From a virus, in the IMG/VR virus record IMGVR_UViG_3300032356_000001: a stretch of DNA of 57,438 nucleotides. One strand, given 5' to 3'. The position numbers and the translations under genes are program-made. Positions 9,040-55,909 of the stretch are shown here, one piece after another. The notes under the pieces were generated by a model that saw nothing but the letters and a program-made list of their open reading frames with translations, was not told the origin of the DNA and did no database searches. The number at the start of each line of letters is the position of its first letter. The stretch's first letter is position 1.

Positions 9040-9063
9040 GCAGGTCGGTACAATTCAGCAGCG

Positions 9064-9966: not shown

Positions 9967-10012
9967 ACTGCGGGAGCGGTACGAATTGTAAGCACGACGG
10001 TACAATTGAGCG

Positions 10013-10945: not shown

Positions 10946-11828
10946 GTATCAGGTACGGAAGGTGCGTCGGGATGGTGTGTCCCAACGGTACTGGGTCGCG
11001 CCGACAAGCGAGCATGACGATGCGGTTATTGCTGTCGTAAGCGGCGACCTTGCCACGGCGGAATCGCGCAAGATGCAGGAACTTGCACAGCAACTTATGC
11101 AAGCTCCGTCAGTGCAGGAGTCGGTCTATCGCTTGCTAATGCGACAGTATGAGGAAATTGGCACTTCGTATGCAAAGCCGATGTCGTTCCTGCAGCACTA
11201 CTTGTCGCGTGGGTATCCAGAGGCAGAGGCGCTGCTCGTGCGATTGGCGACCGAACCCTCCAACAGGCATGTACGAAGAGCAGCTATCGAAACGATAGCG
11301 ACCTCGACGAATCCGCGTGTCCCGCGCTTGATTCGCGAGGTCATCGACAAGGCGCCCGACGAAGACACGACTCGCTACGCCATCTTCTACTTGGCAACCT
11401 ACCTCAACGACACGATGCAGAATCTGATGACTCAAGGAATCACGCTTGCAAGGGAGGCGGTACTCGATGCGTTGGAGACGCTCGGACTTGCGATGCAAGG
11501 CAAATGGTTCGAGCCCAAAGGCGAGATAAGCAACATCCTCAACGCGTTGAAATACAAGCGTTCCGAATTCGAGCGGGCGGCTCAAGGGCAGATACCCGAC
11601 AGCGTTGAAAAGCAGGTTATCGACGGGCTGATGTCGGTTCTCTCGTTAGGAGACTTGGCTAATGAGGCGTTCAAGCAAATGCTGGGTGTCGTCGAGAAGT
11701 GGGGCTCAGAGTACGCGCTCTCCAAGCTTCGCTCTCTATGGAGCGGTTTAAGTTCGAAACGGCGTCGAGATATGGTCTTCGACGCTATGAACGAGATAGA
11801 ACACCAGCTGAAGCGCAAGTCGGGATAA
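10935..11828 (+). CDS. HEAT-repeat protein, paralog 5, with tag variant MSGRYQVRKVRRDGVSQRYWVAPT
   Basis: GGTACAATT (10923-10928) lies 6 nt upstream; 11-nt overlap with paralog 4. Confidence 0.7.
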   Translation: MSGRYQVRKVRRDGVSQRYWVAPTSEHDDAVIAVVSGDLATAESRKMQELAQQLMQAPSVQESVYRLLMRQYEEIGTSYAKPMSFLQHYLSRGYPEAEALLVRLATEPSNRHVRRAAIETIATSTNPRVPRLIREVIDKAPDEDTTRYAIFYLATYLNDTMQNLMTQGITLAREAVLDALETLGLAMQGKWFEPKGEISNILNALKYKRSEFERAAQGQIPDSVEKQVIDGLMSVLSLGDLANEAFKQMLGVVEKWGSEYALSKLRSLWSGLSSKRRRDMVFDAMNEIEHQLKRKSG

Positions 11829-11866: not shown

Positions 11867-12532
11867 ATGTCGCGGCGGAACCAACAGACGACGGCGCGTG
11901 TTGTGAGTGACGAGCCTATCTGCGATTGTGCGGATGAGCATCGCCTCGATGTTCATCTCGAAAGCGCGGATGGGTATCCAGCGGTTGCGAACCTCTGTAC
12001 CCGATGCGGGCGGATACATCGCTTGCCCGCGAACGCGCGTGTGCGCGAGCGTCACGATGAAGACACAGAGACCGAGCGCATGTTGAATCGCGTCTTGTCA
12101 GCGGATCGCGCCAACGCCCATCGTCTGCAAGAGGAGATGCTCGAATTGTACGAGCGCATCGAGCGCGAGCGCGACGAAATCGAGCGACGCGTCGAGATGT
12201 TCAGGCGACGCTACCCGCAGCCGCCCGTGCAGTCCACGGCACATTACCGTGACGCGCTCGCACAGTACGAAGCGGACATCGAGCGACTCCGCGAACTGGA
12301 GATGGCGGAAGCGCACGCTAACGAAACGCTCGGTATGCTCGGCATGCAGGAAGACCCAGACCCTGAGCAGTTCGAGCGCGTTCGAGCAATCGCGGGTATG
12401 CCGAGCCTTGACGCTACGATTCCGTCAGAACCTGACGACGCCACGCCAGACGCTATCCCATCGGAAGCGGAAACGACAGATTCGGAAGCGACGGATGCGA
12501 CTGCCAATACTGACCGTAGGTATTCTCCGTGA
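11867..12532 (+). CDS. Hypothetical coiled-coil protein with an N-terminal Cys cluster (CDC...CTRC) and an acidic tail
   Basis: ORF 11858-12532 trimmed to the ATG; E/R-rich heptad-like region. Confidence 0.55.
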   Translation: MSRRNQQTTARVVSDEPICDCADEHRLDVHLESADGYPAVANLCTRCGRIHRLPANARVRERHDEDTETERMLNRVLSADRANAHRLQEEMLELYERIERERDEIERRVEMFRRRYPQPPVQSTAHYRDALAQYEADIERLRELEMAEAHANETLGMLGMQEDPDPEQFERVRAIAGMPSLDATIPSEPDDATPDAIPSEAETTDSEATDATANTDRRYSP

Positions 12533-14453
12533 TACCGATTCGCAGTGGCATCCCCTGTGTCTTCTGTCGGAACTGTGCGTCCCAGTCGCCATCCCAGCCG
12601 GTCTCCCCGTCCGTTAGCACCAGCACGCCGCTGTACCCGCCCTCTTCATCCCTCTGGCGCGGCACGATTAATTTCTCGACGGCTTGCACGAGACTACCCG
12701 TCACATCCGTGCTGCCCGATACCTGCAGCTGCTTCGCGATGTCTTTAGTTCGACTGCGCAGTTCCTCAGCGCCAACCTCAATCGCGCGTTCAGCGTGCAG
12801 GGATCCCGTGAACGGCACGAAGGTGAACCGCACGCCCTCATCCGCGCCAGAGTTCTCGGCGAGGTCTTGCATGTGCCCCAGAAACTTGCTGAGCATCGCG
12901 TCGTCTATGGAGCCCGACGCATCGACGAGTACCAGTATACGCATCGAGTCGCGTCTTATCCCGCGCGGGAGCAGCACATTCCCGACGGCGAGCTGTGACG
13001 GGTGTCTGCGCCCGATGGCGATGTTCGGACGCCATCGCCTTGCGAATCCCATCGACTCGCTCATAAACTCGCGCAGCACCTGTTGCCAATTCACGCGGCG
13101 CATGCCTCGAATCGCGCTGATGAGACGCTGCGCGTCTGCGCTGCCCTTGCCAGCCTTCCGACCCGTCTCCTCCGACGCCGCGTGCGACTCGCGTGCCGTG
13201 CGGTTCCGCTCACGCTCCATGTATTCCTCAGGCGTCATGCCCGATTCTGCCGCGCGACGCTCGACCGTGCGACGCACCAGCTCATGATTCTCATCCAGCA
13301 TGTCGCTCCCCAGCGGATTCTGGGATGCCTGCTTGCCTGTTGCCCCGCTCGACTGCGACTGCGATGACTGCTGCGTCTGACTCCCGCTTGACTGCGACTG
13401 CGACTGCGATTGCGACGACTGCTGCGACTGCTTCCCGCCCGACTGCGACTGCGACGACTGCTGCGACTGACTCCCGCTCGACTGCGACTGCGACGACTGC
13501 TGCGACTGCTTCCCGCTCGACTGCGATTGCGACGACTGCTGCGACTGCTTCCCGCTCGACTGCGACTGCGACGACTGCTGCGACTGCTTCCCGCTCGACT
13601 GCGACTGCGACGACTGCTGCGACTGCTTCCCGCTCGACTGCGACTGCGACGACTGCTGCGACTGTGCCTCTGCGATTTGGTTCCTCGCATGCGTGCGGTA
13701 GTTCGACTCCCACGGCAGGTAGGGATCGCAATCCTCAAGCTTGTGTATTGCCCAATCGAAGTTCGCTTCTGACGAGACAACACGCGCCTCGCGCATCGAC
13801 TTCAGCAGCCCCTCGATGAGCGTGTTGATTTCCAAGTCCGCTACATCGTTGAATACCGAGTGCGGACTCGCGCCTGCTCGTTCCAGCTCGCCGATAATAT
13901 CGCGATTGAGACGCTTAAAGTCATCGAATCGTGGGAAGTGGGTGAGCGCGAGGTGCAGCGCCTCGTGCAACAGCACCACCTGCACCATGTCGACGGTCGC
14001 CCGCACGCGGTCGGACTCGCTTATCTCCTGTCCCGTGCGTTTCTGGTGCTGTTCCGCCATGATTTTCGGTATCTCGCGCGTCACGAAGTCTGGCGAGATG
14101 TAGAGGTGTCCGAACGGGTCGACCGCCATCGTATCCAGTTCGTTCGTGTAGACAATCTTCTGGAACGGGAGCAAGCGTGACAGGGACGGGAACACCGAGC
14201 GCAGTCGTGTGAAGGCGTTCCCGACGATTTCCTGCGCTCGCGCCAGAGACTGCGAAGGCGATGCAGGCGCGGGTTCCGACGGCGTCCCAGACCCCGCGCG
14301 GGCATGCACGGCAGACTCAGGGAGTACCCAGTACCGCCGTTGGAACACCCCGTGCTGCCCGTGCACCATGTGCGGTTCGGGATGGAGCCTGCCCCCGTGC
14401 GACGGGTCGCTCAGGATGACCGAATCCCACCAAACCACGCGCGACTTGCTCAT
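12453..14453 (-). CDS. Zn-metallopeptidase-like (HExxH) + von Willebrand A domain protein (DUF2201-like) with the N-terminal shared tag and an SQ-rich repeat linker
   Basis: Motifs VLLHEALHLALTH, MIDAS VLVDASGSID and ...LVLTDGETGW. ATG 14453 is preceded by GGAGAGG and TGGTACAAT (14466-14471). Confidence 0.8.
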   Translation of the reverse strand: MSKSRVVWWDSVILSDPSHGGRLHPEPHMVHGQHGVFQRRYWVLPESAVHARAGSGTPSEPAPASPSQSLARAQEIVGNAFTRLRSVFPSLSRLLPFQKIVYTNELDTMAVDPFGHLYISPDFVTREIPKIMAEQHQKRTGQEISESDRVRATVDMVQVVLLHEALHLALTHFPRFDDFKRLNRDIIGELERAGASPHSVFNDVADLEINTLIEGLLKSMREARVVSSEANFDWAIHKLEDCDPYLPWESNYRTHARNQIAEAQSQQSSQSQSSGKQSQQSSQSQSSGKQSQQSSQSQSSGKQSQQSSQSQSSGKQSQQSSQSQSSGSQSQQSSQSQSGGKQSQQSSQSQSQSQSSGSQTQQSSQSQSSGATGKQASQNPLGSDMLDENHELVRRTVERRAAESGMTPEEYMERERNRTARESHAASEETGRKAGKGSADAQRLISAIRGMRRVNWQQVLREFMSESMGFARRWRPNIAIGRRHPSQLAVGNVLLPRGIRRDSMRILVLVDASGSIDDAMLSKFLGHMQDLAENSGADEGVRFTFVPFTGSLHAERAIEVGAEELRSRTKDIAKQLQVSGSTDVTGSLVQAVEKLIVPRQRDEEGGYSGVLVLTDGETGWDGDWDAQFRQKTQGMPLRIGITENTYGQYWQSHPSLPNLSFPLPMG
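13351..13664. repeat. About 8 tandem copies of a 39-bp unit (gactgcgactgcgacgactgctgcgactgcttcccgctc), in frame, encoding (SSGKQSQQSSQSQ)n
   Basis: Read directly; copies differ by a few substitutions and one 6-bp insertion. Confidence 0.9.
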
Positions 14454-17068
14454 CGCCTCTCCGCGATTGTACCATACGGCGCATCGGTCAGGTGACCGTG
14501 TGCGCTCAGCAGATGCATCGCGTGGAGCAGCTCCTCGCGATGCTCGGGCGAGAGATGTTCCCACACATTGTTGACCGTCTGCCAGTGCTGTTCTACCGTG
14601 TCTCGGATTCTGCCGCGTGCGCTCGCATGCAACGGCGCGACATTCACAGCGGGATGCGACAGCACCTGCGCCACATGCTCAGGCGCATGACCTGCCAGCC
14701 GACCGAGTTCCGCATGCTGCTTGCGACGCGCATCCTCATGGTAGGCGCGATACTCGTCGTGAATCTCCTCTGGGAGTATCTCCTGACCCGATTCTACATC
14801 GATGACGGGCGTATGGAGCATCGAGAGCAGTCCCATCCCTGCAGCCGCGCGATGCGCCTCGCGCGAAATCGCATGCACCGTCGATGCATCGCGGTTCTGT
14901 GCGAGAGTCTCCAGCAGACCGTCGAGACGGTTGAGACTGCGTTCCGTCTCCGTGTGCGTGTCGTGCAGGCGCTGTGCGACGATTTCAGGGTTGCCCGAAC
15001 CGAGTATTGCACGCACGCCCCGTCCCAGCGGCGAGCGCGAGTCGACCGCTTCAAGGTGCAGCGCGTGCGCTGCAGGCGCGCCGTGCTGACCCGCCAAGTG
15101 GAGCAGATGCTTCGAGCGCGTGAGGTCGACCGATGCGTGCGAGTCGAACCCTGGCATGTGCAGTTCGGATGTTCCGTCGGGATTCGTACTGACATGCAGC
15201 TTGTCGGTGTCGGTATCCAGATAGTGCAGCGGGAGCGAGAACTCGTAGGGTTGCTGCGACGGGGGCGTGTCGTCGCTGGATAGCACGCGAATCAAGTCGT
15301 CGACGGTCTCAATCGGCTGGCTCTTGAAGGTCGCGCGGGTATGCTTCGCGCCCGCCTCCTTCGCGCGGTCGGAGTGCGTGATGAACACTCCCTCATGCGT
15401 CGCGGCGTCGTGTACCCGCGTCTCGCGATGCACTGTCCGACCGTGATGCGCATCGCTCCCTGCAGCGTCGTCCATAATCGCTTCGACCGATTCCGCGCCT
15501 CGCGGCTTGAGCGCCGTCTGGATAATCTCGTGAATCTTCGGAATGTTCGGGCGTCCCACATTACATGCGAGGAACCGCTCCACCTCTGGCGAGTCCAAGT
15601 CGTATCCCAGCGCGAACAGCACGGACAGCTGGTCAGCGAGTATCATCACGCGTCGCGGCGACATATGCTTGCGGTCGGAATCCATCGAGGCGTAATCGGG
15701 CATATAGTTCGGGTCTGACTTGAAGTTATGCCACATCCCCGCGAGGTCGCCTGATAGCATCGCGTCGATGAGCGCACTCGCGATGCGGTAGTTCGTGCTT
15801 GCGCATTCCGCGCGGAGATCCGAGCGTAGCCCGCGCGACGACATCAGCTTCAGCAGCGTCATCAGATTCTGATGCTCGCGCATCACCTCGCGTGCGGAAC
15901 GACCCGTCTCCAGTTTCGCCCGCATCTGTTCCAGCTCGCCCGCCGCGCCCGCCAGCTCGGGCGACGACGCCTGACGCGACTGACGCGCCTCTTCCGCTTC
16001 CCGCTCCGCATCCTCGTCATAATCCAGAACGAACCGACGCAGGCGATCACGCGCACCTGTCGCTTCGCGCGACGACTCCTGCTCAAACACCGACTGAATC
16101 GCGCGTACATACTCGTCCTCTTCCGACGGCGTCGTCGCATAGTAGAGGAACCTGTCCGCGAACGGAACCAGCGAGGAGCGCATCTTGCCCATCTCGCCTT
16201 CCCAGTCCGCGCGGTTACCGAGCATCACGATGCGGAACGGAACGCCGAGCCGACGGTCAGCGACGATACCGTTCGTGATGAGCGACAGCATCGTCTGCAG
16301 GATCTGGGGCGACTTCGTCGCCTCGTCGAACACCAGCACGAGCGGTACGCCGCGCTGCTTGCAATACTGAATCTTGTGTTCCAAGTCCGCCGTGAACATG
16401 AACCGCACCATGCCCTCGTCGATGGCTTGTGCGCCCATCTGCTCTGTAATGTTGTAGACTGCCGATTGCACATTCAGGATATGGACGCGGAACGGCGCTG
16501 CGTCCTGTTCCGACATAGCGTCGCTCATGTTCATCATCGCTTCCCACAGCGTGGTCTTGCCCACGCCAGGAGCGGAGAGCATCATCACGGGGTGTCCGAC
16601 GGCGCTCCCGTTCTCGTGGATACGCACGGCAAGATGTGCGAGCATCATCTGGCGCTCCATCGGGTTCAGTTGTTCGATGGCGTTGCGCAGCGCCTCGCGT
16701 ACCTCTTCAGGGAGCTGTTCGACATCCAGCCCTGCGGGCGAGGCGCTGGGGGCGCCCGCGCCGTGCGACGGCGCGGGCGCTGGGTGAGGAGACACGGAAG
16801 GAGAAGGTGAGGATGATGGCGATGTAGAGGAAGGCTTCCGCTTGCGTGCTTCGAGCGTCTCGCCGCGCACCCAGAAGGTCTGCTGGAAGGTCGTGCCCTC
16901 GCGATGCACAGTCCGCTCCTCAGGATGTAGACCACGCGACATCGGGTCTTGATGCAGCCCCGAATGGTGCGGGATACTCGGATGGTACTCGTACCGCTCC
17001 GAGAACAGCACCGTGCGCCACCAGACGCGACGCCTGCGATTAATCCGATTCGATGTACCGATTCGCAT
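14450..17068 (-). CDS. Large AAA+ ATPase (MoxR/AAA_5-like core) with the N-terminal shared tag and a long C-terminal extension
   Basis: Walker A LSAPGVGKTT and Walker B LVLVFDEATK. Start chosen at ATG 17068 (GGAGCG SD); 17080 is also possible. Confidence 0.75.
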   Translation of the reverse strand: MRIGTSNRINRRRRVWWRTVLFSERYEYHPSIPHHSGLHQDPMSRGLHPEERTVHREGTTFQQTFWVRGETLEARKRKPSSTSPSSSPSPSVSPHPAPAPSHGAGAPSASPAGLDVEQLPEEVREALRNAIEQLNPMERQMMLAHLAVRIHENGSAVGHPVMMLSAPGVGKTTLWEAMMNMSDAMSEQDAAPFRVHILNVQSAVYNITEQMGAQAIDEGMVRFMFTADLEHKIQYCKQRGVPLVLVFDEATKSPQILQTMLSLITNGIVADRRLGVPFRIVMLGNRADWEGEMGKMRSSLVPFADRFLYYATTPSEEDEYVRAIQSVFEQESSREATGARDRLRRFVLDYDEDAEREAEEARQSRQASSPELAGAAGELEQMRAKLETGRSAREVMREHQNLMTLLKLMSSRGLRSDLRAECASTNYRIASALIDAMLSGDLAGMWHNFKSDPNYMPDYASMDSDRKHMSPRRVMILADQLSVLFALGYDLDSPEVERFLACNVGRPNIPKIHEIIQTALKPRGAESVEAIMDDAAGSDAHHGRTVHRETRVHDAATHEGVFITHSDRAKEAGAKHTRATFKSQPIETVDDLIRVLSSDDTPPSQQPYEFSLPLHYLDTDTDKLHVSTNPDGTSELHMPGFDSHASVDLTRSKHLLHLAGQHGAPAAHALHLEAVDSRSPLGRGVRAILGSGNPEIVAQRLHDTHTETERSLNRLDGLLETLAQNRDASTVHAISREAHRAAAGMGLLSMLHTPVIDVESGQEILPEEIHDEYRAYHEDARRKQHAELGRLAGHAPEHVAQVLSHPAVNVAPLHASARGRIRDTVEQHWQTVNNVWEHLSPEHREELLHAMHLLSAHGHLTDAPYGTIAERR

Positions 17069-17387
17069 GAGACGCTCCATGAGGAGTATACGCCGTCGAG
17101 ACCAGCGCATCGACTCGCGAGACCAAATCCGTGTCGCTTGGCGCGTCGCTGTTGCGCACCTCATCCGCAAGCACATCGATGAGACCGACCAGCACCATCC
17201 ATGGCGAAGTGTCGGTGTCGCCCTGATACGACTCGGCTAAGTCCAGCAGGTGCTGTAGCAGCTCGCGCGGATTCGCATCGCCCAGACGCGCCATGGCGCA
17301 TGCGACGCCGACATCACGGACACGCTCCAGCAGCGCGTCGATGTCCTCAACCTGCAGAATCTCCTGCACAATCGGCGGTTGTCTCAT
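17040..17387 (-). CDS. Acidic hypothetical protein (115 aa) immediately downstream of the sigma factor; anti-sigma or adaptor role is speculative
   Basis: ATGA start/stop overlap with the sigma gene; D/E-rich. Confidence 0.55.
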   Translation of the reverse strand: MRQPPIVQEILQVEDIDALLERVRDVGVACAMARLGDANPRELLQHLLDLAESYQGDTDTSPWMVLVGLIDVLADEVRNSDAPSDTDLVSRVDALVSTAYTPHGASHANRYIESD

Positions 17388-37291: not shown

Positions 37292-37320
37292 CGCCGCGCG
37301 TTAGCCTTTGCGAGCGGATG

Positions 37321-37376
37321 ACTACATGTCAACCACATGTCGACTACATGTCAACCACATGTCGACTACATGTCGA
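37321..37376. promoter_or_regulatory. Array of five ACATGT hexamers at exact 11-bp spacing (2.5 copies of a 22-bp unit ACTACATGTCAACCACATGTCG)
   Basis: ACATGT begins at 37324, 37335, 37346, 37357 and 37368. The array lies 33-85 nt upstream of the tail-operon -10 box. Confidence 0.85.
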
Positions 37377-37579: not shown

Positions 37580-37660
37580 CGGCAGGAAGTGGAGTCGCGC
37601 GTCGTGACGCCTCCCATTGGATTCGAGCCGTGTGTGTGGTGACGAATTATACCGCATGCT

Positions 37661-37686
37661 TAAGGGTGACAATTTGTCACCCTTAT
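37661..37686. promoter_or_regulatory. Second copy of the TAAGGGTGACAAtTTGTCACCCTTAT palindrome, abutting the left end of the tnpB element
   Basis: 26/26 identity with 2565-2590. Confidence 0.8.
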
Positions 37687-37730
37687 ATCTGTCGCCTTTA
37701 TGCGACAGAGGAATGCCGCCAATCACCCCC

Positions 37731-37759
37731 TTGACAAATTCTGGAATGTAGGGTACAAT
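37731..37759 (+). promoter_or_regulatory. Consensus promoter TTGACA-17nt-TACAAT driving tnpB; GTG start lies 7 nt downstream
   Basis: Sequence ccTTGACAaattctggaatgtagggTACAATccaagcgGTG. Confidence 0.7.
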
Positions 37760-37766
37760 CCAAGCG

Positions 37767-38927
37767 GTGGAACTGACCGTTGTCGCCAAACTTGACCTGT
37801 CGCAACAGGATAAGGAGCGGTTGGAACGAACGCTCGAAGTGTTCGCCGTCGCCTGCAACGCCATCAGTCAAGTGGCATTTGCCGAGCGATGCTTCCATCC
37901 CGTCGCTCTTCAGCAACTGACCTACTACGACATCCGACAACGGTTCAACCTCCTCGCTAATTATACCGTCCGTGCCATTAGCCGTGTGGCAAAAGCATAC
38001 AAAACCGCCAAAGCCAAGAACCAACCCCTGAAACTTCTGACCTTCAAAGTCCAATCGTTGGATTTGGACGCGAGACTCTTCCGACTGTTTCTGAAAGACG
38101 ACGAAGTTTGGGTGAGCCTCGCGGCTTGCGACGGAAAACGAATCAAGTGCCCTGTCAAGGTCGGGCAACGCTACCTGCCAATCCTCAAAGCCTCCAACCC
38201 GACTTCTGCAGTTCTCAAACGCCACAGGGACGGAGAACTCTACCTGCATATCGCTGTTTCTGTTCCAGTCCCTAAGCCGAGCGACCCGCCACAGAATGTT
38301 GTCGGTGTTGACCTCGGCGAGATTGACTTGCTTGTGGCTTCTAACGGTGTTAAGATTTCGGGTGTAGAATCGATTGAGCGGCGCAAGCGGTTCCGTGCCC
38401 GACGGAGTATCCTTCAACGCAAAGGCACGAGAGCCAAACGGGCTCGGACACGGCTGGGCGATAAGGAACGCCGTTGGGCACGCAACTACTTGCATACCGT
38501 TAGCCGTCGCTTCGTCGATAGTCTCCCACCCAACAGCCTCGTTGTGCTGGAAGACCTCGGCGGTATCCGCGATCGCTGTAAGCGTCGCGGCGCCGAGCAG
38601 CGGGCGCAGTTCCACACTTGGGCGTTTCGGCAACTCCAGTTTATGATTGACTACAAAGCCCGATTGGCGGGTCATCAAGTGGTGTTCGTTAGACCCGCCT
38701 ACACTTCGCGAACTTGTCCTCGCTGTGGTCATGTCAGTTCTTCCAATCGTCTAAGTACCCGTCTATTCCGTTGCCAGCAGTGTGGCTTCCAGCACAACGC
38801 TAACTTTGTTGCATCCATAAACATTGCTACTCGTGCCGTCCAAGCGGGCTTGGGCGGTGCTGGGCTGCCGTCAACCAGCCTCAGGCTGAGAGAGTTCCAT
38901 CCTCTCTCAGCAAACTGTCGGCTTTAG
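37767..38927 (+). CDS. tnpB: TnpB (RuvC-like, OrfB_Zn_ribbon) with the third catalytic Asp replaced by Asn
   Basis: RuvC-I VVGVDLGE, RuvC-II LVVLEDLG, zinc ribbon CPRCGH..CQQCG. The RuvC-III position reads QHNANFVASINIA where NADxNAAxNI is expected. Confidence 0.85.
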   Translation: MELTVVAKLDLSQQDKERLERTLEVFAVACNAISQVAFAERCFHPVALQQLTYYDIRQRFNLLANYTVRAISRVAKAYKTAKAKNQPLKLLTFKVQSLDLDARLFRLFLKDDEVWVSLAACDGKRIKCPVKVGQRYLPILKASNPTSAVLKRHRDGELYLHIAVSVPVPKPSDPPQNVVGVDLGEIDLLVASNGVKISGVESIERRKRFRARRSILQRKGTRAKRARTRLGDKERRWARNYLHTVSRRFVDSLPPNSLVVLEDLGGIRDRCKRRGAEQRAQFHTWAFRQLQFMIDYKARLAGHQVVFVRPAYTSRTCPRCGHVSSSNRLSTRLFRCQQCGFQHNANFVASINIATRAVQAGLGGAGLPSTSLRLREFHPLSANCRL

Positions 38928-38945
38928 CCGACAGTAGTTGACCCT
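38880..38945 (+). ncRNA. Candidate 3' part of a TnpB omega/right-end RNA scaffold
   Basis: Two hairpins: ctgagagag-ttccatc-ctctctcag (38886-38910) and ctgtcggc-ttta-gccgacag (38915-38934). They overlap and follow the tnpB stop codon. Confidence 0.4.
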
Positions 38946-38948
38946 TAC

Positions 38949-41900
38949 TTATGTGAGGCAGGTCTCCCAGTTGATGCCGTCAGTGGAGCGTGCGATAGCG
39001 ACGGTTGCGCTGCGTTTGTAGGTGAGGTATAGCACGCGATGTCTGCGGTCGAGCGTGCAGTCGCCGAGGTCGTCGGCGTCGAAGGGTGCGCTGTCGAGTA
39101 TGCAGTCGGTTGGGTTTGTCCATGTGCGTGCGTGGTCGCGTGAGACTCGCATGCGCACGCGGCTGTCCTGTCCGAGTATCCATGCGTAGATGGCGTACTC
39201 CTCGCCCCAAGTCTGTATGAGGATTCGCTTCCCGTTCATCGTCCAGACCTCTGTGATTGTACCGTCGGCGGGCAGGATGGCGAGCGTGACGCTGGTATCG
39301 TGCTGGTATCCGATGAGGAGTTGCGGGAGGTCGGTACGGTCGTTGGCTTCGAGCGCGTGGAGCGGTCGCGGCGTGCTGCGCGGCGTGCGCTGCCTGAGCA
39401 GGGGCGGCGCGACGAATTCGAGTGTGTTGGCTTGCAGGGCGAAGTAGAGTCGGTCGCGCAGTTGCGACACGACGATGGGGATAGCGAGCGATGGCGAGGT
39501 CTGTACGGTTGCGGAGACGCATGCGTGCGAGAAGAAGGGCGTGGTGCGTGCGAGCGTGCGCGTGCCGACACGGATGCGCCACTGCTTGGTGGGGTGTTGC
39601 ATCGTCTCCGTGCCGTCGACGGACATGTCGTGTCGCGTGATGAGGTAGCGTCCGACAGTGCGGTCAGTCACCGTGCGCTGAGTCTCTGTAGTGCCCTCAA
39701 TCTCCCAGAGGTGCGCGTTCTCGTCGGGATGGAGATAGTAGCGTCGGCTGGGCGCGGCGAAGTAGCACCACTGTCCCCAGTTGCCTGTGAACCCGAATTG
39801 TGGGCTGAGCTGGAATCGGCGCGTCGGCAGCGTCGGGAGCGCGGGGCACTCGCGCAGGTCGTTAATCAGCCAGAGCGCGAGCCGAGTCGTGTAGGGCAGC
39901 AGCGCGGCGCGGCACATCTGCCTGACGCGCGGCACGCCTGCAGGATGACCGCCCGTCTCAACATCATCAATACCCCACTCCAGAATCTGCGCCATAATCG
40001 CGGCTGTGCTGGCTGCGTCTTGCCCCAGTTGCAGCTGGCGATAGAGGGCGGCGGCGTCGTAGAGCGTCATGGGCTGATGAGGCAACCGCACGCTCGGCGC
40101 GTTGCTCGCAGTAGGATAGACGAGCAGACCCCAGTTGAGCGTTTGCGGATTGCGCACATGGGAGTAGGTGTGTGCGCCGTTATCGGTGGCAATCGCGTTC
40201 GTGACCGAGTCGCGATAGAAGGTGGGGTACTCCATCACATACGGCGTCGGTGTGGTTTGTGTGATGGTGATGCGCAGCCGTGCGCCCGCGCGTGCCCCAA
40301 GCAGTTGCCAAAGCGTCGCGCGTCTGGCGTCGCCGAAGGTCGCGTTGCTTACCCCGTCGGCGTCCCAGTCGCTGCCAAGCTCAGAGTAGCCCGCTGCAAG
40401 CGCGGCGTATTGCCTGCGCCATGTCCCAGCGTACTTCGTGTCGTCTCCGTGCGGGATGGCATGCGTGCCGCGTGTGTTGGCGATGAGAGCGATCTCGTTC
40501 TCGGCGCTCACGAGTTCGATGTTGACGCTGGTATAGGCGGTGTCAGTCAGCCAGATACGGACGCGGTCAGCAACAGCGGGATAGAGGAACGGCGACGCGT
40601 TCCAGTCTGCCAGCGTGAATTCGAGCGTGTGTGTGGCGCTGGTTGGCGTGACGGTAATACCGAGCGGGGTAAACGCCAGCGTCGCGTTAGTGGCGCTCCA
40701 GCGCGGCGCAGAGTCGGATGTGAGCTGCAGGTCGCTCGGCGGGAGCCACTCCACGAGCGCAGGGCGCACACTGCCCACCCAGCCGCTCGGCACGCCGTAC
40801 AAAGCGTCAATCCACGCGCTCCATGTGCCGTGCGCGAGCGCATCGAGCAGTAAGTAGCTCCGTCGCCTACTGCGGATAGCACTTGGCAGCGCGGGATGCT
40901 CGATGTGCTGGCACTGATGCGGACGCCAATAATCCGCCACAGGCGTCGGCTCCGCTAACCCGTCCCCGTCGCGGTCTAATCCCCAGTTCTGCAACCAGCA
41001 GATGTACGACCACATCGGCGCGGCGTGCGTGTTCCAGAAGCGTGCGTGCAGGCTGCCGTGGCGATACTGCGGATGACAGTGCGCGTTGACCTCCAGCATG
41101 TGCGACTCGCTGTAGTTCACAAGGCTATCTGTGAGCGTGCCGCAGCATGGGTCAGTGCTGCCCTGGTAATCAGGCGGGCATACGGGGCAGGGCCACGGAC
41201 AGATGTTGTGCGTCACGGCGCGAGTGAGTGTGATGCCCAGCGTGTATGGGCAGTGCAGCGGCTCACCCATCGGCTCGTTGAGTGGGTTGCTCGCGCCGCC
41301 GTCATGCACATAAAGCAGCTCGTCGCGCTGGGGGTGGAGCAGAACGGGTTCGCTCAGCATGCTGCTGCACGGCGTCGCGTTGCCCGTGTCGCAGTTATAC
41401 TCCGTGCGCACGCCACTCGCATGCCGCGCGACGCGCACCTCTGGAAACTTAGCACGGTACATCAGGTATTCGTGCGTGAGGCTCTCGCCGAGCGGCACGA
41501 ACTCGCGCGGCAGGTCGGGCACGACCCACAGACTCGTGGCACGCTCGCGCGTGGTGGATGTCTGGCGGTAGATGGGAATCGATCCGTAGACAGTGTTGCC
41601 ATTTTCGTCGGGGCACGGGCAGCGACAGGTCACAGTCCCAATCGATGTGTTGCTTGCGGATGAGTGCTGCTCCGCGAATACGACCGCGCTCCAAGTGTCG
41701 TTCCCGCCGAGTTCGGGCGCTGGTGGCGTCTCTCCGCACGGGTTGCCAAGCAGCGGCTGGCGGATAGCGCGGATGGAATACGCTGTCCAGTCGTCTGCGC
41801 CATGCGCCCAGATGCGCCAGCCGCCCACGACGCGCACGCTCGACTCAGCGGTAAACGACCACGCTTGACACGCCCCGCCCGTGCTGCCAATCCCGCTGCC

Positions 41901-42395
41901 CGCTGTGGCGGTAGCGTGCAATCGCGACATAGCCATCGGCAGCCCCGCAGGCGCGAAGTAGGTGTCGTTCCGCACGCTGCCTGTCGTGGGGAGCGTGTGC
42001 GTGACCTCGACGAAGTCGACGTAATCGATGCCGGTGATGTAGATGCGCAGATTCGACCACCTGAATTCCCACGCGGGCGTGCCGTCCGAAAGCGGCGAGT
42101 TGTACCAGCGCGGCTGCTCGAACTCCACGATAAGCTCGTGCGCCTCAATCGGAGCCGTATCCGTGCGCGTCCAAGTCAGCGAGCCGAGTTGCACAGTTGC
42201 GACGCGCGAGGTGGTGGTTCCGCTCACAGTGAGCGCGAGGGTGAGCTTGAGGTACTCCGTGAGCGTGGATAGGTCGGGAGCGAATGGCACGGTCAGCACG
42301 CCGCTAACGCCCTCGCCGTCCGTGTTCTGCATGCTCGGCTCAATCCGCACGCGCAGTTGCATCTTCTCCCATCCGCCGACGCGCCCTGCGAACAT
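38949..42395 (-). CDS. Large fibre/receptor-binding-like structural protein (1148 aa) with C-terminal BNR/Asp-box repeats and a Cys-rich segment
   Basis: Asp-box-like VSRDHARTWTNP and ARSTDGINWETC; segment CPWPCPVCPP..CCG; size and position next to the lysis and tail genes. Confidence 0.5.
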   Translation of the reverse strand: MFAGRVGGWEKMQLRVRIEPSMQNTDGEGVSGVLTVPFAPDLSTLTEYLKLTLALTVSGTTTSRVATVQLGSLTWTRTDTAPIEAHELIVEFEQPRWYNSPLSDGTPAWEFRWSNLRIYITGIDYVDFVEVTHTLPTTGSVRNDTYFAPAGLPMAMSRLHATATAGSGIGSTGGACQAWSFTAESSVRVVGGWRIWAHGADDWTAYSIRAIRQPLLGNPCGETPPAPELGGNDTWSAVVFAEQHSSASNTSIGTVTCRCPCPDENGNTVYGSIPIYRQTSTTRERATSLWVVPDLPREFVPLGESLTHEYLMYRAKFPEVRVARHASGVRTEYNCDTGNATPCSSMLSEPVLLHPQRDELLYVHDGGASNPLNEPMGEPLHCPYTLGITLTRAVTHNICPWPCPVCPPDYQGSTDPCCGTLTDSLVNYSESHMLEVNAHCHPQYRHGSLHARFWNTHAAPMWSYICWLQNWGLDRDGDGLAEPTPVADYWRPHQCQHIEHPALPSAIRSRRRSYLLLDALAHGTWSAWIDALYGVPSGWVGSVRPALVEWLPPSDLQLTSDSAPRWSATNATLAFTPLGITVTPTSATHTLEFTLADWNASPFLYPAVADRVRIWLTDTAYTSVNIELVSAENEIALIANTRGTHAIPHGDDTKYAGTWRRQYAALAAGYSELGSDWDADGVSNATFGDARRATLWQLLGARAGARLRITITQTTPTPYVMEYPTFYRDSVTNAIATDNGAHTYSHVRNPQTLNWGLLVYPTASNAPSVRLPHQPMTLYDAAALYRQLQLGQDAASTAAIMAQILEWGIDDVETGGHPAGVPRVRQMCRAALLPYTTRLALWLINDLRECPALPTLPTRRFQLSPQFGFTGNWGQWCYFAAPSRRYYLHPDENAHLWEIEGTTETQRTVTDRTVGRYLITRHDMSVDGTETMQHPTKQWRIRVGTRTLARTTPFFSHACVSATVQTSPSLAIPIVVSQLRDRLYFALQANTLEFVAPPLLRQRTPRSTPRPLHALEANDRTDLPQLLIGYQHDTSVTLAILPADGTITEVWTMNGKRILIQTWGEEYAIYAWILGQDSRVRMRVSRDHARTWTNPTDCILDSAPFDADDLGDCTLDRRHRVLYLTYKRSATVAIARSTDGINWETCLT

Positions 42396-50550: not shown

Positions 50551-51021
50551 TCAGGTCTTCGCCGTCATTTTCGCTGCAGTCGCGCGGTTCTGGATTTCGG
50601 CAACCGCGCGTCGCTGCTGTCGTAGCACCTCCTCGGCGTGTCGCTTGTGCCCTTCGGCGCGGGCGCGGAGCCATCGCTCGATGCGCTCCAGCCAGCGCAC
50701 CGCGGCAAGCACGCGCGAGGGATAGCCGTTGAGCTTGTCAACGATAGTCTCGGCATCCTCGCGATTGCCATTGAAGGATATTGTTCGTACACTGCCCCCG
50801 ACATGCATTTCTATCCCGTCGAGCTGCGGCTCGTCGGACATGAAACGCTTTGCAGGGTACACGAACTGCACTCCGCCGAGGCGCAGTTCGAACCGCTTCA
50901 GCCGCCCACGAGGCACTCGTGGGAAGGTGTGCGCCTCATACGCTTTGCGTGCCTCGTTGCACGCCTGCAAAGCGTCGTGGAGCGCAGTAACCATCGCCTC
51001 TCTGAGTTTAGGCTCACTCAT
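50551..51021 (-). CDS. Hypothetical protein (156 aa)
   Basis: AAGGAGGTGG SD; start overlaps the VWA gene stop. Confidence 0.55.
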   Translation of the reverse strand: MSEPKLREAMVTALHDALQACNEARKAYEAHTFPRVPRGRLKRFELRLGGVQFVYPAKRFMSDEPQLDGIEMHVGGSVRTISFNGNREDAETIVDKLNGYPSRVLAAVRWLERIERWLRARAEGHKRHAEEVLRQQRRAVAEIQNRATAAKMTAKT

Positions 51022-52624
51022 CGATAACCACCTCCTTGACCCACGCAGGCGTGTTGTCTCGTCGCCCGCGCGGGGTGATGACGGCGATAACGGGCACGCG
51101 CGTGCGTGGGGCGCGTCCCCACGGCGTCTCGCCGTCGGTGACGACCACCACCAGCTGTGGCGGTCGCGACTTCGGGCTGCTGGAGTCGGCGACCTCACGC
51201 ACAAGGTATCCCATATCCGTGCCGCCGCCCCCGCGCACCCTGCGGAACGCCTTCACAGCTTCCGCCGCTGTGCGCACGCGAGCCTCGGCGCGTACGCTCG
51301 TGTCGCCGAACACGACGCGCATCTCGGCGACTCCGCCTCGCTTGAGTATCGCCTGTACCTCGCGCAGGGCGACGCCCAACTCGCCGTCGCTGATTGAGCC
51401 GCTCGTGTCGACGATGACGGCGACATCGAGCATGGGCTGGCGGAGCGTCGGTAAGACGACATCTGGGATGGCGCTCTGGCGGCGATTGGGTCTCGCGTAG
51501 GAGTAATCGAGGCGTCCCGCGCCGTAAGTGCGCCCTCGCGCAATATGCCGCGCGAGTATCCGCTGCCACGGCAGCGGCTTGTTCGTCGTGGCAGCGTCGT
51601 ACCGCCTCGCCATGTTCGCGCCCTGCGAGCCGCGAGTCTTAGCATACTCGGCGGCGGCTCTAAGGGTGGATTCGACGAGCTGGTCAATCTCCACCTGCGA
51701 GACAGGCTCCTCATCGGTCTCCCACGGCGCAGGTCGTCCCGTGGCAGCGGAGCCTTGTTGCGACGATTGCGTGGATGACGACTCGGGCGCGGAGTCGCTG
51801 CCGCGTGCGTCGTCGTCGCCCGATGCGTCGGACGAACGCTGCGCGTCGCATGCGCCATCTGCGCCGCTCGCTCCGCCACTCTGCCCAACCTGCGACGAGT
51901 CGCCTGCGTTTTCGCTCGATGATTGGGGAGATGAGTCGCCGCGGCTGCGACCACACGCGCCGTGTGAGGACTGGTCTTTACCAGCCCCCTCAGCGGGCGT
52001 GCCCGCGCCCTGCGACGAGTCTGTAGCGTGCGCAGACGAGCCGTCGTCATTAGTAGCAGAGGGAGACGGCGCGTCACCAGCAGATGCACCGTCGCGCCCA
52101 TCCGACTCTTCTTCGGACGAGGATTCCGCGACCGCGCCAGTCGACCCCGCGTCTGAGTCGCCATCCTGCGAGTCGCCATCTTGCGGAGTCGTTGAAGTCG
52201 AACTTGAATCGCTCAACATATCGAGGAGCGCGAGGGCGTACTCCTCTGCGGTACGCCCCGCCTCAAGTCCAACTTCCTGTGGGAGCGTCCAGTCGGGACG
52301 GCTGCCGTACTCGCCCGCGAGGTCGTCGTCGATTTCCATCGCGGAGGCAGTCTCAGCAATATCGCGAGGCAGCGACTTGAGCCGTCGCGCGTGGCGGCGG
52401 ATCAGACGCTCGACCTCACGGCGAAGCTGGATGACGAGAGTCTCCAGCTCCGTCTGCTCTACGACAGTCGGATTGTAATACAGCGTCCAGCCCTCGCTGG
52501 CGGCGAGGGCGTGCGGGCACGCCTCGCTCGCCACCATTCTCAGGCGAATCGTCGCTGTTGCGAGGTACGGACGTCCCCTCATGAGGGCGTACCTCGCAAT
52601 CTGCACCTTCTGACTCGCTTTCAT
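51014..52624 (-). CDS. VWA-domain protein (DUF2201-like; HExxH position degenerate) with an acidic Ser/Asp-rich insert
   Basis: MIDAS VAVIVDTSGSISD and ..VVVVTDGETPW. The N-terminal domain is homologous in layout to CDS 12453-14453 but reads RREVERLIRRH where HExxH is expected. Confidence 0.75.
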   Translation of the reverse strand: MKASQKVQIARYALMRGRPYLATATIRLRMVASEACPHALAASEGWTLYYNPTVVEQTELETLVIQLRREVERLIRRHARRLKSLPRDIAETASAMEIDDDLAGEYGSRPDWTLPQEVGLEAGRTAEEYALALLDMLSDSSSTSTTPQDGDSQDGDSDAGSTGAVAESSSEEESDGRDGASAGDAPSPSATNDDGSSAHATDSSQGAGTPAEGAGKDQSSHGACGRSRGDSSPQSSSENAGDSSQVGQSGGASGADGACDAQRSSDASGDDDARGSDSAPESSSTQSSQQGSAATGRPAPWETDEEPVSQVEIDQLVESTLRAAAEYAKTRGSQGANMARRYDAATTNKPLPWQRILARHIARGRTYGAGRLDYSYARPNRRQSAIPDVVLPTLRQPMLDVAVIVDTSGSISDGELGVALREVQAILKRGGVAEMRVVFGDTSVRAEARVRTAAEAVKAFRRVRGGGGTDMGYLVREVADSSSPKSRPPQLVVVVTDGETPWGRAPRTRVPVIAVITPRGRRDNTPAWVKEVVIDE

Positions 52625-53679
52625 CGTTGCATCGCCTCCTCAACGGCACCCATAAACTCGGAGAACTGAGACAGGTCTGGTGTGCCGTAAAGCGCACGCC
52701 CTCGCTTCAGCAGACGACCCGCTGCCAGTGCAGCGAGGTCTGTTGCACTCTGTGCAACGCCACGGAGGACTTCCCACGCCCTCTCCCAAGACTCGGGCGA
52801 CTCGATTGCCTCTGCCGACTCCGCCAGCGCGGTGAGTTCGGCATGGGCGATGTCGCCTCGGCTTGGCAACCGATAGGCTCGCCCAAGCGCGAGGATTTCG
52901 ACAGGCTCGCGCAAGTCAAGCGTCACCAGCCATGACGAGAACTCAGCCGCAGGCGCGTCGCCGACAAGCGCCGCGGCGAGGTCGCCTGCCGATGTGGGAT
53001 CGAGACTCGCCGCGGCCCACGCGCGGGAAAACATATCCCAAGTTCGCGGGGTCGCGAATCGAGTCTCTTCTCGCGACGGATCGAATGTATAAAGCAGATT
53101 CGGTCGTCGCGTGAGGAATGCTGCCACGCGGGCTCGTGCGCGAGACCAGATAGTCTCTTCCACTCCCTCCAGCTGGGGCGGGTTGCCCCAGTACGAGGGG
53201 AAGTGGCGCACCCACTCACCTGCGTCGAGCGAGTAGGTGAGATGCGCGAAGCGGTTCGCAAGCGGGGGCGCGAGTTCCCATCCGTTCGCTGCCATCTCAG
53301 GGGGATTGGCAGCAGCGACGACGCGCACGCCTGCAGGCAGGCTGTGTGCGCCGACCTTGCGCTCCAGCACCAAGCGCAGCAGCGCCGCTTGCACCGTCGG
53401 CGGCGCGGTAGTCAACTCGTCCAGAAACAGGATGCCCTGCCCGCTCTCCTCGAACTGGTAGACCCAGTCAGGCGGAGCGAAGCGCACGCGCCCATCGTGC
53501 AGCGCAGGCAGCCCGTTGAAGTCGGTCGGGTCGTGCAGGCTGGCGATAATCTCGATGAGTTGCCAGCCCCGTTTGCTCGCCACGGCTCGAATGTGAGCCG
53601 TCTTACCTACGCCAGGGGCGCCCCACACGAGGGTGGGGACGCCCGCGTCTATCAATCTGCCAAGTACCTTACCGTTCAT
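52621..53679 (-). CDS. MoxR-like AAA+ ATPase
   Basis: Walker A VWGAPGVGKT, Walker B ILFLDELTTAPP, VRVVAAANP; 352 aa. Confidence 0.85.
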   Translation of the reverse strand: MNGKVLGRLIDAGVPTLVWGAPGVGKTAHIRAVASKRGWQLIEIIASLHDPTDFNGLPALHDGRVRFAPPDWVYQFEESGQGILFLDELTTAPPTVQAALLRLVLERKVGAHSLPAGVRVVAAANPPEMAANGWELAPPLANRFAHLTYSLDAGEWVRHFPSYWGNPPQLEGVEETIWSRARARVAAFLTRRPNLLYTFDPSREETRFATPRTWDMFSRAWAAASLDPTSAGDLAAALVGDAPAAEFSSWLVTLDLREPVEILALGRAYRLPSRGDIAHAELTALAESAEAIESPESWERAWEVLRGVAQSATDLAALAAGRLLKRGRALYGTPDLSQFSEFMGAVEEAMQR

Positions 53680-54465: not shown

Positions 54466-54753
54466 ATGATGAAACTATTGGAAGAAGTGCTGGAACTGTT
54501 GGAGCAGTCGGAAGATGTCGTGCGCTTGGATAGTCGCACGCGCGACCATATCGAGTCACTGCCGAAAGCGGAGTGGTGGGACTTGAGCCACTCCCGCGAC
54601 GGGAGCGAGCGACTGGAGATACGGGTCGGTAGACGCTACTACTACATCTACTACTGGACTCGGTATCTGATTGACGGATGGTCTCCTGACCGATGCGTCA
54701 GGATCCGAAGAGACAGCGCCGAGGGCAAGCGGATTGCCGAAATGCTGCAGTAA
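54466..54753 (+). CDS. Hypothetical protein (95 aa)
   Basis: ORF 54382-54753 trimmed to the SD-preceded ATGATG. Confidence 0.55.
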   Translation: MMKLLEEVLELLEQSEDVVRLDSRTRDHIESLPKAEWWDLSHSRDGSERLEIRVGRRYYYIYYWTRYLIDGWSPDRCVRIRRDSAEGKRIAEMLQ

Positions 54754-54767
54754 GGGGAGAAAGGACA

Positions 54768-55571
54768 GTGAGGAGACGATTGCGCTCATTTGAAGTCACG
54801 GTAAACATCCCATTCACTGCGGGGTCGCCCCATCTGGTGCGGGTGACCCCGCGCGACTGGGACGAGTACGACACTGAGCGAGTGCGCGTCCACGACACTG
54901 TAACGGACGAAGAGATTCGACGCGCACTCGCGTCACACAACGAACTTCGCCACGCGCTTGCGCTCGACGCGCACGCGCAGCGCGATGTGGCGCGCCTCAT
55001 CGCCATGGTGCAGTGGCAGGGGCACTATGCCGCGGGGAGCGAGAACGCGATGCAGTGGCTCTGTGACCACTACACGCGCGAGGAGCGACGCGAGCCGCTG
55101 CGTCGCGCGTTCGGGCATGAGGCGGCGCACATCCGCCGCGCGGCGTGTCTGGTCGCGTGGCGAGCGCACGATGAGTTCGTATTAGACACTCTCGTCGCGC
55201 TGGCACAGCACGACGCGGATGACACCGTCGCGGTGACGGCAGTCTCCGCGCTGAGCGCGATGCCGTGCGAGCAAGCGTTTCGAGCGATCCAGAGCGTGGC
55301 GATGAACTCGCAACGGCACTGGGCGACGCGGGTGGACGCCGCGCACATGCTCGGGCAGACCCGTCGCGCAGACGCGATTCCGTATCTGCTGGAAATCACA
55401 CTGCGCTGCGACTGCGAACGGACTGTGGATTGTGCGCGGGAGATGATTGCGCACATCCAACAGGCAGCGCAGGGCGTCTGGGAGCGGTTCGATGCACACG
55501 CGCCTCGCGTCGGTCGACCGATCCCGTACAACCGTCGCTGGTTCTCAATCCAGCGACGGCGAGAGTCATAG
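54768..55571 (+). CDS. HEAT-repeat-like protein (no N-terminal tag)
   Basis: GTG 54768 follows a GGGGAGAAAGG SD. Repeats read DTLVALAQHDADDTVAVTAVSALSAM.. / ..HWATRVDAAHMLGQTRRADAIPYLLEI. Confidence 0.5.
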   Translation: MRRRLRSFEVTVNIPFTAGSPHLVRVTPRDWDEYDTERVRVHDTVTDEEIRRALASHNELRHALALDAHAQRDVARLIAMVQWQGHYAAGSENAMQWLCDHYTREERREPLRRAFGHEAAHIRRAACLVAWRAHDEFVLDTLVALAQHDADDTVAVTAVSALSAMPCEQAFRAIQSVAMNSQRHWATRVDAAHMLGQTRRADAIPYLLEITLRCDCERTVDCAREMIAHIQQAAQGVWERFDAHAPRVGRPIPYNRRWFSIQRRRES

Positions 55572-55761
55572 TACCTCACGCGATTAAACCATCGACGCCC
55601 AACAGCCAGATGTATATGTAAACCAAGACAGCGTGTCAACGCACGAACGATGCGCATGGACGCGAACGCCGCGCCACGCACGCAGCGTATTTAAGCATAA
55701 TTAGACCCTCCTTTAAGACGCCCCGCGATTCGTGCCTGATTTCGACTTAAGTCGTTCCACC

Positions 55762-55810
55762 TGTGACGCGAGGAGTTCCATATGTGACGCGAGGAGTTCC
55801 ATATGTGCCG
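55762..55810. repeat. Tandem 21-bp direct repeats (TGTGACGCGAGGAGTTCCATA x2 plus a partial third)
   Basis: Read directly in the 425-bp non-coding gap. Confidence 0.85.
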
Positions 55811-55909
55811 CATGGGGGGCGTGCAGGTCGCCATCTCGCGCTGTCGGAAGCGATAATCACTATCAACTAAGAGCGATTTTCGCGAGATTTGCGCCGAATC
55901 GGCGTGCAT

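Follow-up and report, generated by a model that had tools for sequence, protein, structure and literature searches.

The 57,438-nucleotide (nt) viral record IMGVR_UViG_3300032356_000001, which in its full length we refer to as the window, carries a tnpB-only element with ends of the IS200/IS605 type. Judging from sequence comparisons, this element is a phage-associated TnpB/omega-RNA module in which the RuvC site reads Asp-Glu-Asn (D-E-N) instead of Asp-Glu-Asp (D-E-D). The Asn, at residue 346, is a fixed character of a whole clade of functional proteins, not a private mutation or the sign of a decaying copy. The element and its coding parts are the following:

37687-38942, plus strand: the entire tnpB-only IS200/IS605-type element, about 1256 bp, delimited by DNA homology to 37 other copies and by an empty site
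37689-37708, plus strand: subterminal hairpin of the left end (LE), CTGTCGCC-TTTA-TGCGACAG, with one mismatch
37731-37759, plus strand: tnpB promoter, TTGACA-17-TACAAT, with 11 of 12 consensus matches, conserved in all copies that keep the region
37767-38927, plus strand: tnpB coding sequence (CDS), 386 amino acids, with a GTG start (ATG in most other copies)
38310-38327, plus strand: RuvC-I motif D182-L-G-E185-I-D187
38550-38552, plus strand: codon GAA of the RuvC-II Glu262
38715-38783, plus strand: CCCC zinc ribbon of the TNB domain (C317, C320, C336 and C339), all four Cys being invariant
38802-38804, plus strand: codon AAC of Asn346, at the position of the RuvC-III catalytic Asp, in the motif H-N-A-N-F-V-A

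The tnpB product is a regular member of its family. It scores 188 bits against the NCBIfam model NF040570 (guided_TnpB; cut-off 100), and in Pfam it matches PF07282 (80 bits) and PF01385 (32 bits), the matches being to OrfB_IS605 and Cas12f1-like_TNB. An AlphaFold2 (AF2) model based on a 90-sequence alignment has a predicted local distance difference test score (pLDDT) of 89.1 and a predicted TM-score (pTM) of 0.77, with disorder restricted to residues 363-386. Foldseek searches with this model gave TM-scores of 0.71-0.74 to AsCas12f and OsCas12f, and of 0.59-0.62 to TnpB structures (ternary complexes). When the sequence is aligned with four solved Cas12f/TnpB chains, N346 pairs with the catalytic residue of their 'NAD' motif, an Asp (D411 of 8j3r_A, for example), and pairwise alignment likewise places 'HNAN' beneath the 'ANAD/SANAD' of solved Cas12f chains. 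The RuvC triad is D182-E262-N346, one residue short of an intact D-E-D. An earlier note on this DNA, made from its letters alone, had described a 386-residue TnpB with VGVDLGE (D182), VLEDLG (E262) and a zinc ribbon, encoded by an intact gene and bearing an Asp-to-Asn change at the third RuvC position. All of this was borne out, the substitution by alignment to both structures and homologues, and the intactness of the gene by its open reading frame (ORF), purifying selection and conserved promoter. The note had also pointed to Val-Ala in place of the conserved Asn-Ala that follows, but Val348 is no second lesion: Val or Ile occupies the position in 96 of 121 sequences of the subfamily, those of the Asp-bearing sister clade included. 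A Type V-F CRISPR-Cas12f system would have an adjacent CRISPR array and tracrRNA; repeat arrays are absent from the window, both around the gene and farther away.

To place the substitution within the family, 1.84 billion 50%-identity representatives were searched exhaustively, and the best 150 of the 14,067 matches were examined. Asp is present at the RuvC-III column in 146 of these 150 (those with a residue there), Asn occurs only in the single cluster that holds the present clade, all other complete proteins have Asp, and D182 and E262 are universal. In a family alignment of 121 sequences, 119 of which have a residue in the same column, it reads Asp in 84 and Asn in 35. HNAN is found in all of the approximately 33 protein clusters at 76-90% identity and also in P0035, a homolog at 49% identity; NAD is found in the next clade out (45-51% identity) and in everything more distant. 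P0035 is sister to the Asn clade in a neighbour-joining tree, and in a reciprocal search with P0035 the Asn clade comes out as nearest. In this analysis the clade surfaced only in phage and viral-metagenome contexts. TnpB matches were found in 416 phage records, none of them in this clade (the best, Thermus phage MN1, is 37% identical); nothing among 50,697 phage records matched 20 kb of the window by megablast, and six peptide patterns from the window's TnpB found no close relative in 185,579 species-representative genomes, an absence which is not proof.

Selection has evidently maintained both the gene and the Asn. Every one of the 32 fully covered copies has an intact ORF of 380-390 amino acids. 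The ratio of nonsynonymous to synonymous substitution rates (dN/dS, Nei-Gojobori) has a median of 0.18 (range 0.11-0.35), and constraint is strongest, at 0.079, in residues 301-360, a stretch spanning the zinc ribbon and RuvC-III. At codon 346 all copies (25 unique CDSs) have AAC or AAT and never GAY. Over these 25 genes the synonymous tree length comes to 4.4 substitutions per site, enough for a neutral codon to have undergone roughly a dozen changes; D182, E185, D187, E262 and N346 are nonetheless invariant despite synonymous codon changes. Because Asn is fixed throughout the clade under purifying selection, the protein is a functional one with a non-canonical active site.

A second substitution accompanies the first. 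Position 187 is Asp, a residue unique to the close Asn clade, while relatives have Asn or His there (D-L-G-(I/M)-x-(N/H)). Glu185, also beside the RuvC-I Asp182, is clade-specific as well. The Asn187-to-Asp change is reciprocal to Asp346-to-Asn and may represent a relocated carboxylate. Relocation is plausible because, in the secondary structure of the AF2 model, residue 187 lies at the start of the strand next after beta-1, the strand bearing D182.

The right end (RE) of the element has the predicted anatomy of an omega-RNA, and the DNA beyond it supplies a putative guide:

38833-38942, plus strand: omega-RNA scaffold, overlapping the last ~31 tnpB codons, supported by covariation and fold energy
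38833-38860, 38862-38881, 38885-38911 and 38914-38935, plus strand: scaffold stems, the last of which is also the RE hairpin
38870-38875 with 38937-38942, plus strand: pseudoknot between GUCAAC in the loop of stem 2 and GUUGAC at the terminus
38943-38958, plus strand: predicted guide, the first 16 nt of the right flank (CCTTACTTATGTGAGG), beginning at the boundary where copies diverge

Twenty-five unique right ends align into the four stem-loops, and nine pairs stay paired through two-sided changes. In this alignment 98% of the cells are paired, against 25-49% when the partners are slid; double-change cells number 28, compared with 9.2 +/- 2.5 after shuffling (none of 500 shuffles reached the observed value). 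The pseudoknot pairs in all sequences, its lone variable base (the terminal C or U) remaining compatible with G. The RNA of the window folds with -68 kcal/mol (z = -6.7). Codons 361-386, which lie over the scaffold and encode the disordered tail, show a low dS (0.26) and a dN/dS of 0.79. Rfam, at both gathering and permissive thresholds, returned no TnpB-associated RNA family, the only match being psRNA14 at chance level (E 0.12). The right-end hairpins that the earlier note had taken for an omega-RNA scaffold are present and covary across the 25 right ends.

The predicted guide differs at each of at least 20 insertion sites, and that of the window has no second match within the window. It spans the stop codon (38949-38951) and the last codons of a convergent 1148-residue ORF. 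Because the same sequence is present in an uninterrupted allele, L040, with two mismatches at guide positions 6-7, the guide (the 16-20 nt beyond the right end) is pre-existing phage DNA at the end of this ORF; two mismatches are within the expectation from the background divergence of about 10%. RNA running past the right end had been said to be antisense to a fibre gene. The geometry relative to the 1148-residue ORF is correct and is a by-product of the landing site; as the ORF matches nothing in Pfam or PHROG, the label 'fibre' is unsupported.

DNA similarity between the window and the 37 other copies, which come from metagenomes and IMG/VR, stops at 37687 and 38942, the flanks being different. 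The element also stands out as a dip in GC content (0.555 versus ~0.64 in the flanks). Where the LE is kept in other copies, it reads (T/C)|CATAGAAGATAGCGGCA-N5-6-CTGTCGCC-TTTA-GGCGACAG and lies ~20 nt ahead of the promoter; in the window it is truncated, the outer ~22 nt (CATAGAAGATAGCGGCAGGAGA in other copies) being gone. The RE of every copy is ...CTGTCGGC-TTTA-GCCGACAG-TAGTTGA(C/T), beyond which the flanks diverge. A discrete element at multiple sites with subterminal imperfect palindromes at both ends is what characterizes IS200/IS605 members, and the ends are of that type. There is no room for tnpA between the LE hairpin and the tnpB promoter, nor does any ORF of the window match Y1_Tnp. 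Elements of the IS1341 type are known to be transposase-less, and a missing Y1 TnpA does not exclude IS200/IS605 membership. The promoter is the sole strong sigma-70-like match in the region; because its -10 box lies 7 nt before the start codon, the tnpB mRNA is probably leaderless. On these points too the earlier note read the DNA well: its coordinates, 37686-38945, agree with the boundaries set by the copies and the empty site, the absence of tnpA holds for the element and for the whole window, and the TTGACA-17-TACAAT promoter with a GTG 7 nt downstream lies where it was placed and is conserved in the copies.

The other copies reveal the element at many positions. At least 20 unrelated right flanks follow the RE. 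Relatives of this phage account for at least 17 of the element-bearing loci, and in them the element occupies at least five other genome positions; the remaining loci are short metagenome or IMG/VR contigs. The element-free IMG/VR contig L040, which comes from metagenome 3300043544 as L003 does, matches 12 kb of the window at 88-90% identity and joins window position ~37692 straight to ~38941. Its empty site reads ...GGGTGACAATTTGTCACCCTTATCTATGTGAGGCAGG..., the target across the insertion point being ...TTTGTCAC|CCTTATCTATGTGAGGCAGG... In turn, the window carries at ~5617 the uninterrupted target of the L006/L028-type insertion. Occupied and empty alleles thus coexist among close phage relatives. 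The junctions of the window are ...GTCACCCTTAT-AT-[LE hairpin... on the left and ...GTTGAC]-CCTTACTTATGTGAGG... on the right, and they include one more feature:

37680-37686, no strand assigned: CCCTTAT, the left copy of a 6-7-nt target stretch whose counterpart at the right junction is CCCTTAC (38942-38948)

This stretch flanks the element on both sides and is single-copy in the empty site of L040; a target duplication is not expected from the clean peel-and-paste insertion of IS200/IS605 elements.

What is retained differs sharply between the two ends. The tnpB gene and the right end are always kept, whereas left ends are variably lost: they are truncated in the window, hairpin-less in L006 and absent in L001, L010 and L025. 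In L027, L036 and L012 phage promoter sequence takes the place of the LE and is fused to the -10 box of tnpB, GGTATAAT, the 5' boundary of the element lying exactly at the box. The -10 of the element (GGTA(C/T)AAT) resembles a recurrent phage promoter motif, GCGGTATAAT, seen at 37643-37652 (minus strand), at ~5610 (minus strand) and in the flanks of L007, L011, L026 and L027; this motif has an ATG 7-8 nt downstream, which implies leaderless genes.

Several further observations concern individual loci. The divergent promoter region at ~5601-5640 of the window (minus strand; ...TAATTATACGCGAGCGGTATAATTCCATGCCATG...) is the uninterrupted target of the L006, L023 and L028 insertions and also, 16 nt off, of the L027 insertion, making the region a hotspot for the element in phage relatives. 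L001 contains at 5799-5913 (minus strand) a solo RE of 115 bp, which starts at the equivalent of window position 38829 and lies 3.5 kb from a full copy. It has nothing but the omega-RNA scaffold, the terminal hairpin of which shows compensatory changes, and may be an RNA-only mini-element. In L036 an internal deletion in one copy (2984-3257) has brought codons 1-74 of tnpB up against the final 38 nt of the RE, and a 5'-truncated copy (4771-4956) follows 1.5 kb downstream. L022 has a 20-nt RE remnant (2274-2294) 65 nt past the full RE. No other copy of the element or of the omega-RNA was found inside the window. A shared context with L003, where tnpB also adjoins an ORF of 1148 residues, was considered and dropped: BLASTP shows the two ORFs to be unrelated, so that their equal length is coincidental.

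We now turn to what such a module might do. The reading we prefer, to which we would give about an even chance with its homing and retention component included, is that of a rearranged and possibly attenuated nuclease. The tnpB gene would be transcribed as a leaderless mRNA, the 3' end of which would become the omega-RNA. TnpB with this RNA would recognize its own locus, in uninterrupted form, in relatives that infect the same cell, where alleles of the L040 type coexist with occupied ones. Its active site would be rearranged but not dead, Asp187 beside the RuvC-I Asp supplying the carboxylate, and the chemistry may be attenuated or altered. Cutting of the empty allele would let recombination copy the element in, resulting in homing and retention. 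The element would thus persist through the action of TnpB/omega-RNA on uninterrupted alleles and not through ongoing transposition by TnpA. Homing and retention would explain why tnpB and the RE are kept everywhere while left ends decay and TnpA is missing. To our knowledge, the sole function known for a transposon-like, flank-guided TnpB module requires cutting. Published surveys are compatible with an active enzyme. Six large TnpB branches have an altered RuvC-III, the largest with Asp replaced by His, and such conserved alterations were interpreted as probably active (Altae-Tran et al., PNAS 2023, PMC10691335). The same study found altered catalytic residues in ~15% of Y1-associated TnpBs, with some branches being virus-specific. 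Single-site D-E-D variants have been described as often spurious 'dead' calls (Wiegand et al., bioRxiv 10.1101/2023.11.30.569447).

A number of observations weigh against a nuclease of this kind. A change of Asp to Asn at a metal-binding carboxylate is a classic inactivating substitution in enzymes of the RuvC/RNase H fold. Mutation of any D-E-D residue abolishes TnpB cleavage (10.1101/2023.11.30.569447). P0035 has Asn346 together with Gln187, so that Asn346 seems to have existed without the putative compensator. As one residue in two does not vary at all within the clade, that D182 and E262 are conserved does not speak specifically for catalysis. Nor is there a sign of recent spread: copies from different sites are old, sharing no more than 96% identity (median 83.5%), although each has kept its ORF. 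The sole empty allele found mismatches the guide of the window at positions 6-7. Junctions compared with empty sites are unclean for IS200/IS605: at that of L006, 20 nt have been gained and 6 nt lost, and the L021 insertion comes with a 175-bp deletion. Finally, no transposon-adjacent motif (TAM) emerged beyond a single base: ten LE-bearing left flanks and four empty-site comparisons share only the -1 base, T in 12 of the 14 and C in two, and 'TCAT' could belong to either the LE or the TAM.

There is a different explanation, possible but less probable: Asn346 abolishes cleavage, and TnpB/omega-RNA is kept as a useful RNA-guided binder. It might silence or block the replication of co-infecting relatives with the uninterrupted allele, or, bound in cis at its own right flank, it might insulate tnpB from the convergent 1148-residue gene or stand as a roadblock between the two. 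The replacement of the Asp throughout the clade, set against its presence in 146 of the best 150 representatives, agrees with this explanation, as does the persistence of Asn without Asp187 in P0035; D182 and E262, however, are retained even in that 49%-identity sister. Purifying selection shows that the protein does something, although the segment under the strongest constraint, the zinc finger with RuvC-III, is one that TldRs, the RNA-guided repressors derived from TnpB, often shed. The terminus of the RE, GAC or GAT, is hardly distinguishable from the weak T/C motif at -1 of the targets, and this resemblance makes binding in cis conceivable. Nevertheless, a guide that differs from site to site and lacks a second target in the phage offers no consistent regulatory target, and no accessory gene is linked to the element. 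Binding-only precedents do exist in TldR, Cas12m and Cas12k (10.1101/2023.11.30.569447, PMC10691335), and the lack of near-identical copies at different sites means that active spread is not evident. On the other hand, a dead enzyme gives a transposon no known benefit. That this TnpB is nuclease-dead is unproven. We regard as rather doubtful the fuller proposal of a truly nuclease-dead TnpB lineage, long kept in phage genomes with a different flank-derived guide at every site, either as a binder against rivals' uninterrupted alleles or as a roadblock in cis at its own right flank. If true, such a lineage would represent a previously undescribed stage between a selfish nuclease and a domesticated TldR.

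The comparison with TldRs that the earlier note had drawn fares much worse. TldRs are defined by fewer than two remaining D-E-D residues, frequent loss of the zinc-finger/RuvC C-terminus, the lack of identifiable transposon ends, associated accessory genes such as fliC and oppF, and fixed promoter guides (10.1101/2023.11.30.569447). In that work, single-site D-E-D variants were excluded from the TldR set on the grounds that a catalytic residue can sit elsewhere. A TldR-like transcription factor, domesticated and with a guide selected to repress a phage or host promoter, would be in line with the RuvC substitution, with the existence of phage-encoded TldRs and with the position of the element next to a promoter-rich intergenic region. 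Here, however, two of the three D-E-D residues are kept and the C-terminus is intact, with its segment the most constrained of all. Transposon ends are present, and the element resides at many sites among unrelated neighbours. The guides differ among at least 20 sites, the guide in the window matches the 3' end of an ORF and not a promoter, and the empty site of L040 proves that it is simply the pre-existing flank. By these features the element is not a TldR-type domesticated repressor, and we consider such a role very improbable. Even less credible is a decaying relic, that is, an inactivated TnpB heading for a pseudogene in a stranded TnpA-less element: truncated or lost left ends, the missing tnpA and the degraded derivatives in L036 (internal deletion), L001 (solo RE) and L022 (RE remnant) are outweighed by 32 of 32 intact ORFs, a dN/dS of 0.18 over a synonymous tree length of 4.4, an Asn kept through AAC/AAT changes, and a promoter and omega-RNA that are conserved down to compensatory changes, so that the selection data (intact ORFs, dN/dS and codon 346) exclude the pseudogene reading.

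The surroundings of the element are those of a tailed phage. The window encodes a large terminase, a Mu-type portal and protease, a tail tube protein, a sliding clamp and a helicase, along with three DNA methyltransferases, an amidase and a holin; a Y1 transposase is absent. Its terminase is 30-33% identical to those of Thermus phages, the nearest cultured relatives, and the phage, itself uncultured, is probably thermophilic. One feature next to the element bears on its landing site:

37664-37682, minus strand: hairpin GGGTGAC-AATTT-GTCACCC, the likely terminator of the 1148-residue ORF

In the element-free relative this hairpin directly follows the stop of that ORF, and the insertion has separated the two. 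The ORF itself (38949-42395, minus strand) has no Pfam or PHROG match; immediately upstream of it are a methyltransferase and the amidase/holin cassette.

Elsewhere in the window we noted several repeats and paralogous genes. Five tandem 11-bp units (GACTACATGTC / AACCACATGTC) at 37320-37376, with a perfect period of 22 bp repeated 2.5 times, lie between minus-strand ORFs of 83 and 116 residues, upstream of the tail-tube gene. A related 21-bp repeat containing ACATGTG occurs 2.8 times at 55754-55811, and both arrays look like arrays of regulator-binding sites. Five ~300-residue paralogs with the N-terminus MSVKYRVWKVRRDGVSQRYRVAPTRE and a HEAT-repeat match are arranged in tandem at 7211-11828 (plus strand), within an island of lower GC content (0.55-0.58 versus 0.62); a further HEAT-repeat ORF is found at 54693-55571. 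Two gene pairs, at 12453-17176 and 51014-53679 (both minus strand), each combine a DUF2201-type metallopeptidase/VWA gene with one of the AAA/MoxR-like ATPase type, and in the first a 39-bp tandem repeat, long and Ser/Gln-rich, extends over 13344-13664.

Both Cas12 and the TldR repressors descend from TnpB. For the loss or rewiring of nuclease activity along these paths, the present clade represents a clean natural test case: a paired swap, Asp-to-Asn in RuvC-III and Asn-to-Asp in RuvC-I, within an otherwise canonical, constrained and transposon-like module. If the D-E-N site (with D187) is active, the range of RuvC catalytic arrangements in RNA-guided nucleases would be wider, and the enzyme would be a probably thermostable one of 386 residues. 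If it is dead, selection would be able to maintain a binding-only TnpB before domestication, in phages and with programmable flank-derived guides. Homing or interference is open to a direct test, as closely related phages include some with the occupied allele and some with the empty one. It is already known that phage tnpB genes are common, and catalytically altered TnpB branches have been catalogued. What is new is the D-E-N clade with its paired N-to-D swap, for which the omega-RNA is complete and alleles with and without the element are documented; the contexts in which it turned up here are exclusively phage or viral-metagenome ones.

Among known systems, the closest are canonical IS200/IS605 TnpB/omega-RNA elements (ISDra2, IS608 and the IS1341 type). 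They share with the present element the protein family, the WED/REC/RuvC/TNB fold and the CCCC zinc ribbon, near-identical subterminal hairpins at both ends, occurrence at many sites, a guide from the right flank, and a pseudoknotted omega-RNA that overlaps the 3' end of tnpB and stops at the RE. In contrast to canonical TnpB, the third Asp is Asn throughout the clade and the residue five positions after the RuvC-I Asp is Asp instead of Asn or His. As an element it also differs in that no TnpA is found, left ends are often decayed, and a 6-7-nt target duplication is present in the window. The second comparison is with the RuvC-III-rearranged (RIIIr) and other catalytically altered branches (PMC10691335), which likewise have the RuvC-III Asp substituted clade-wide in an intact 'derived' TnpB of the NADXN type; here, the replacement is conserved in 33 close clusters, 25 unique CDSs and P0035. 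However, the largest RIIIr case has changed Asp to His and lacks a zinc finger, whereas in the present clade Asp has become Asn, the zinc finger is kept and there is a reciprocal Asn-to-Asp change in RuvC-I.

More distant are the TldRs, the fliC-associated phage TldR included. The likeness consists of descent from TnpB, a RuvC lesion, carriage by phages and predicted binding of a guide RNA; the features that set TldRs apart (fewer than two D-E-D residues, loss of the C-terminus, lack of ends, accessory genes and a fixed promoter guide) do not apply to the present element. The last parallel is a functional analogy. Free-standing homing endonuclease genes of phages are, like this element, small selfish intergenic cassettes with their own promoter, with occupied and empty alleles and without a transposase. 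Recognition by the present module would be RNA-guided and not protein-based, and the cleavage that would complete the analogy is, for this module, a proposal.

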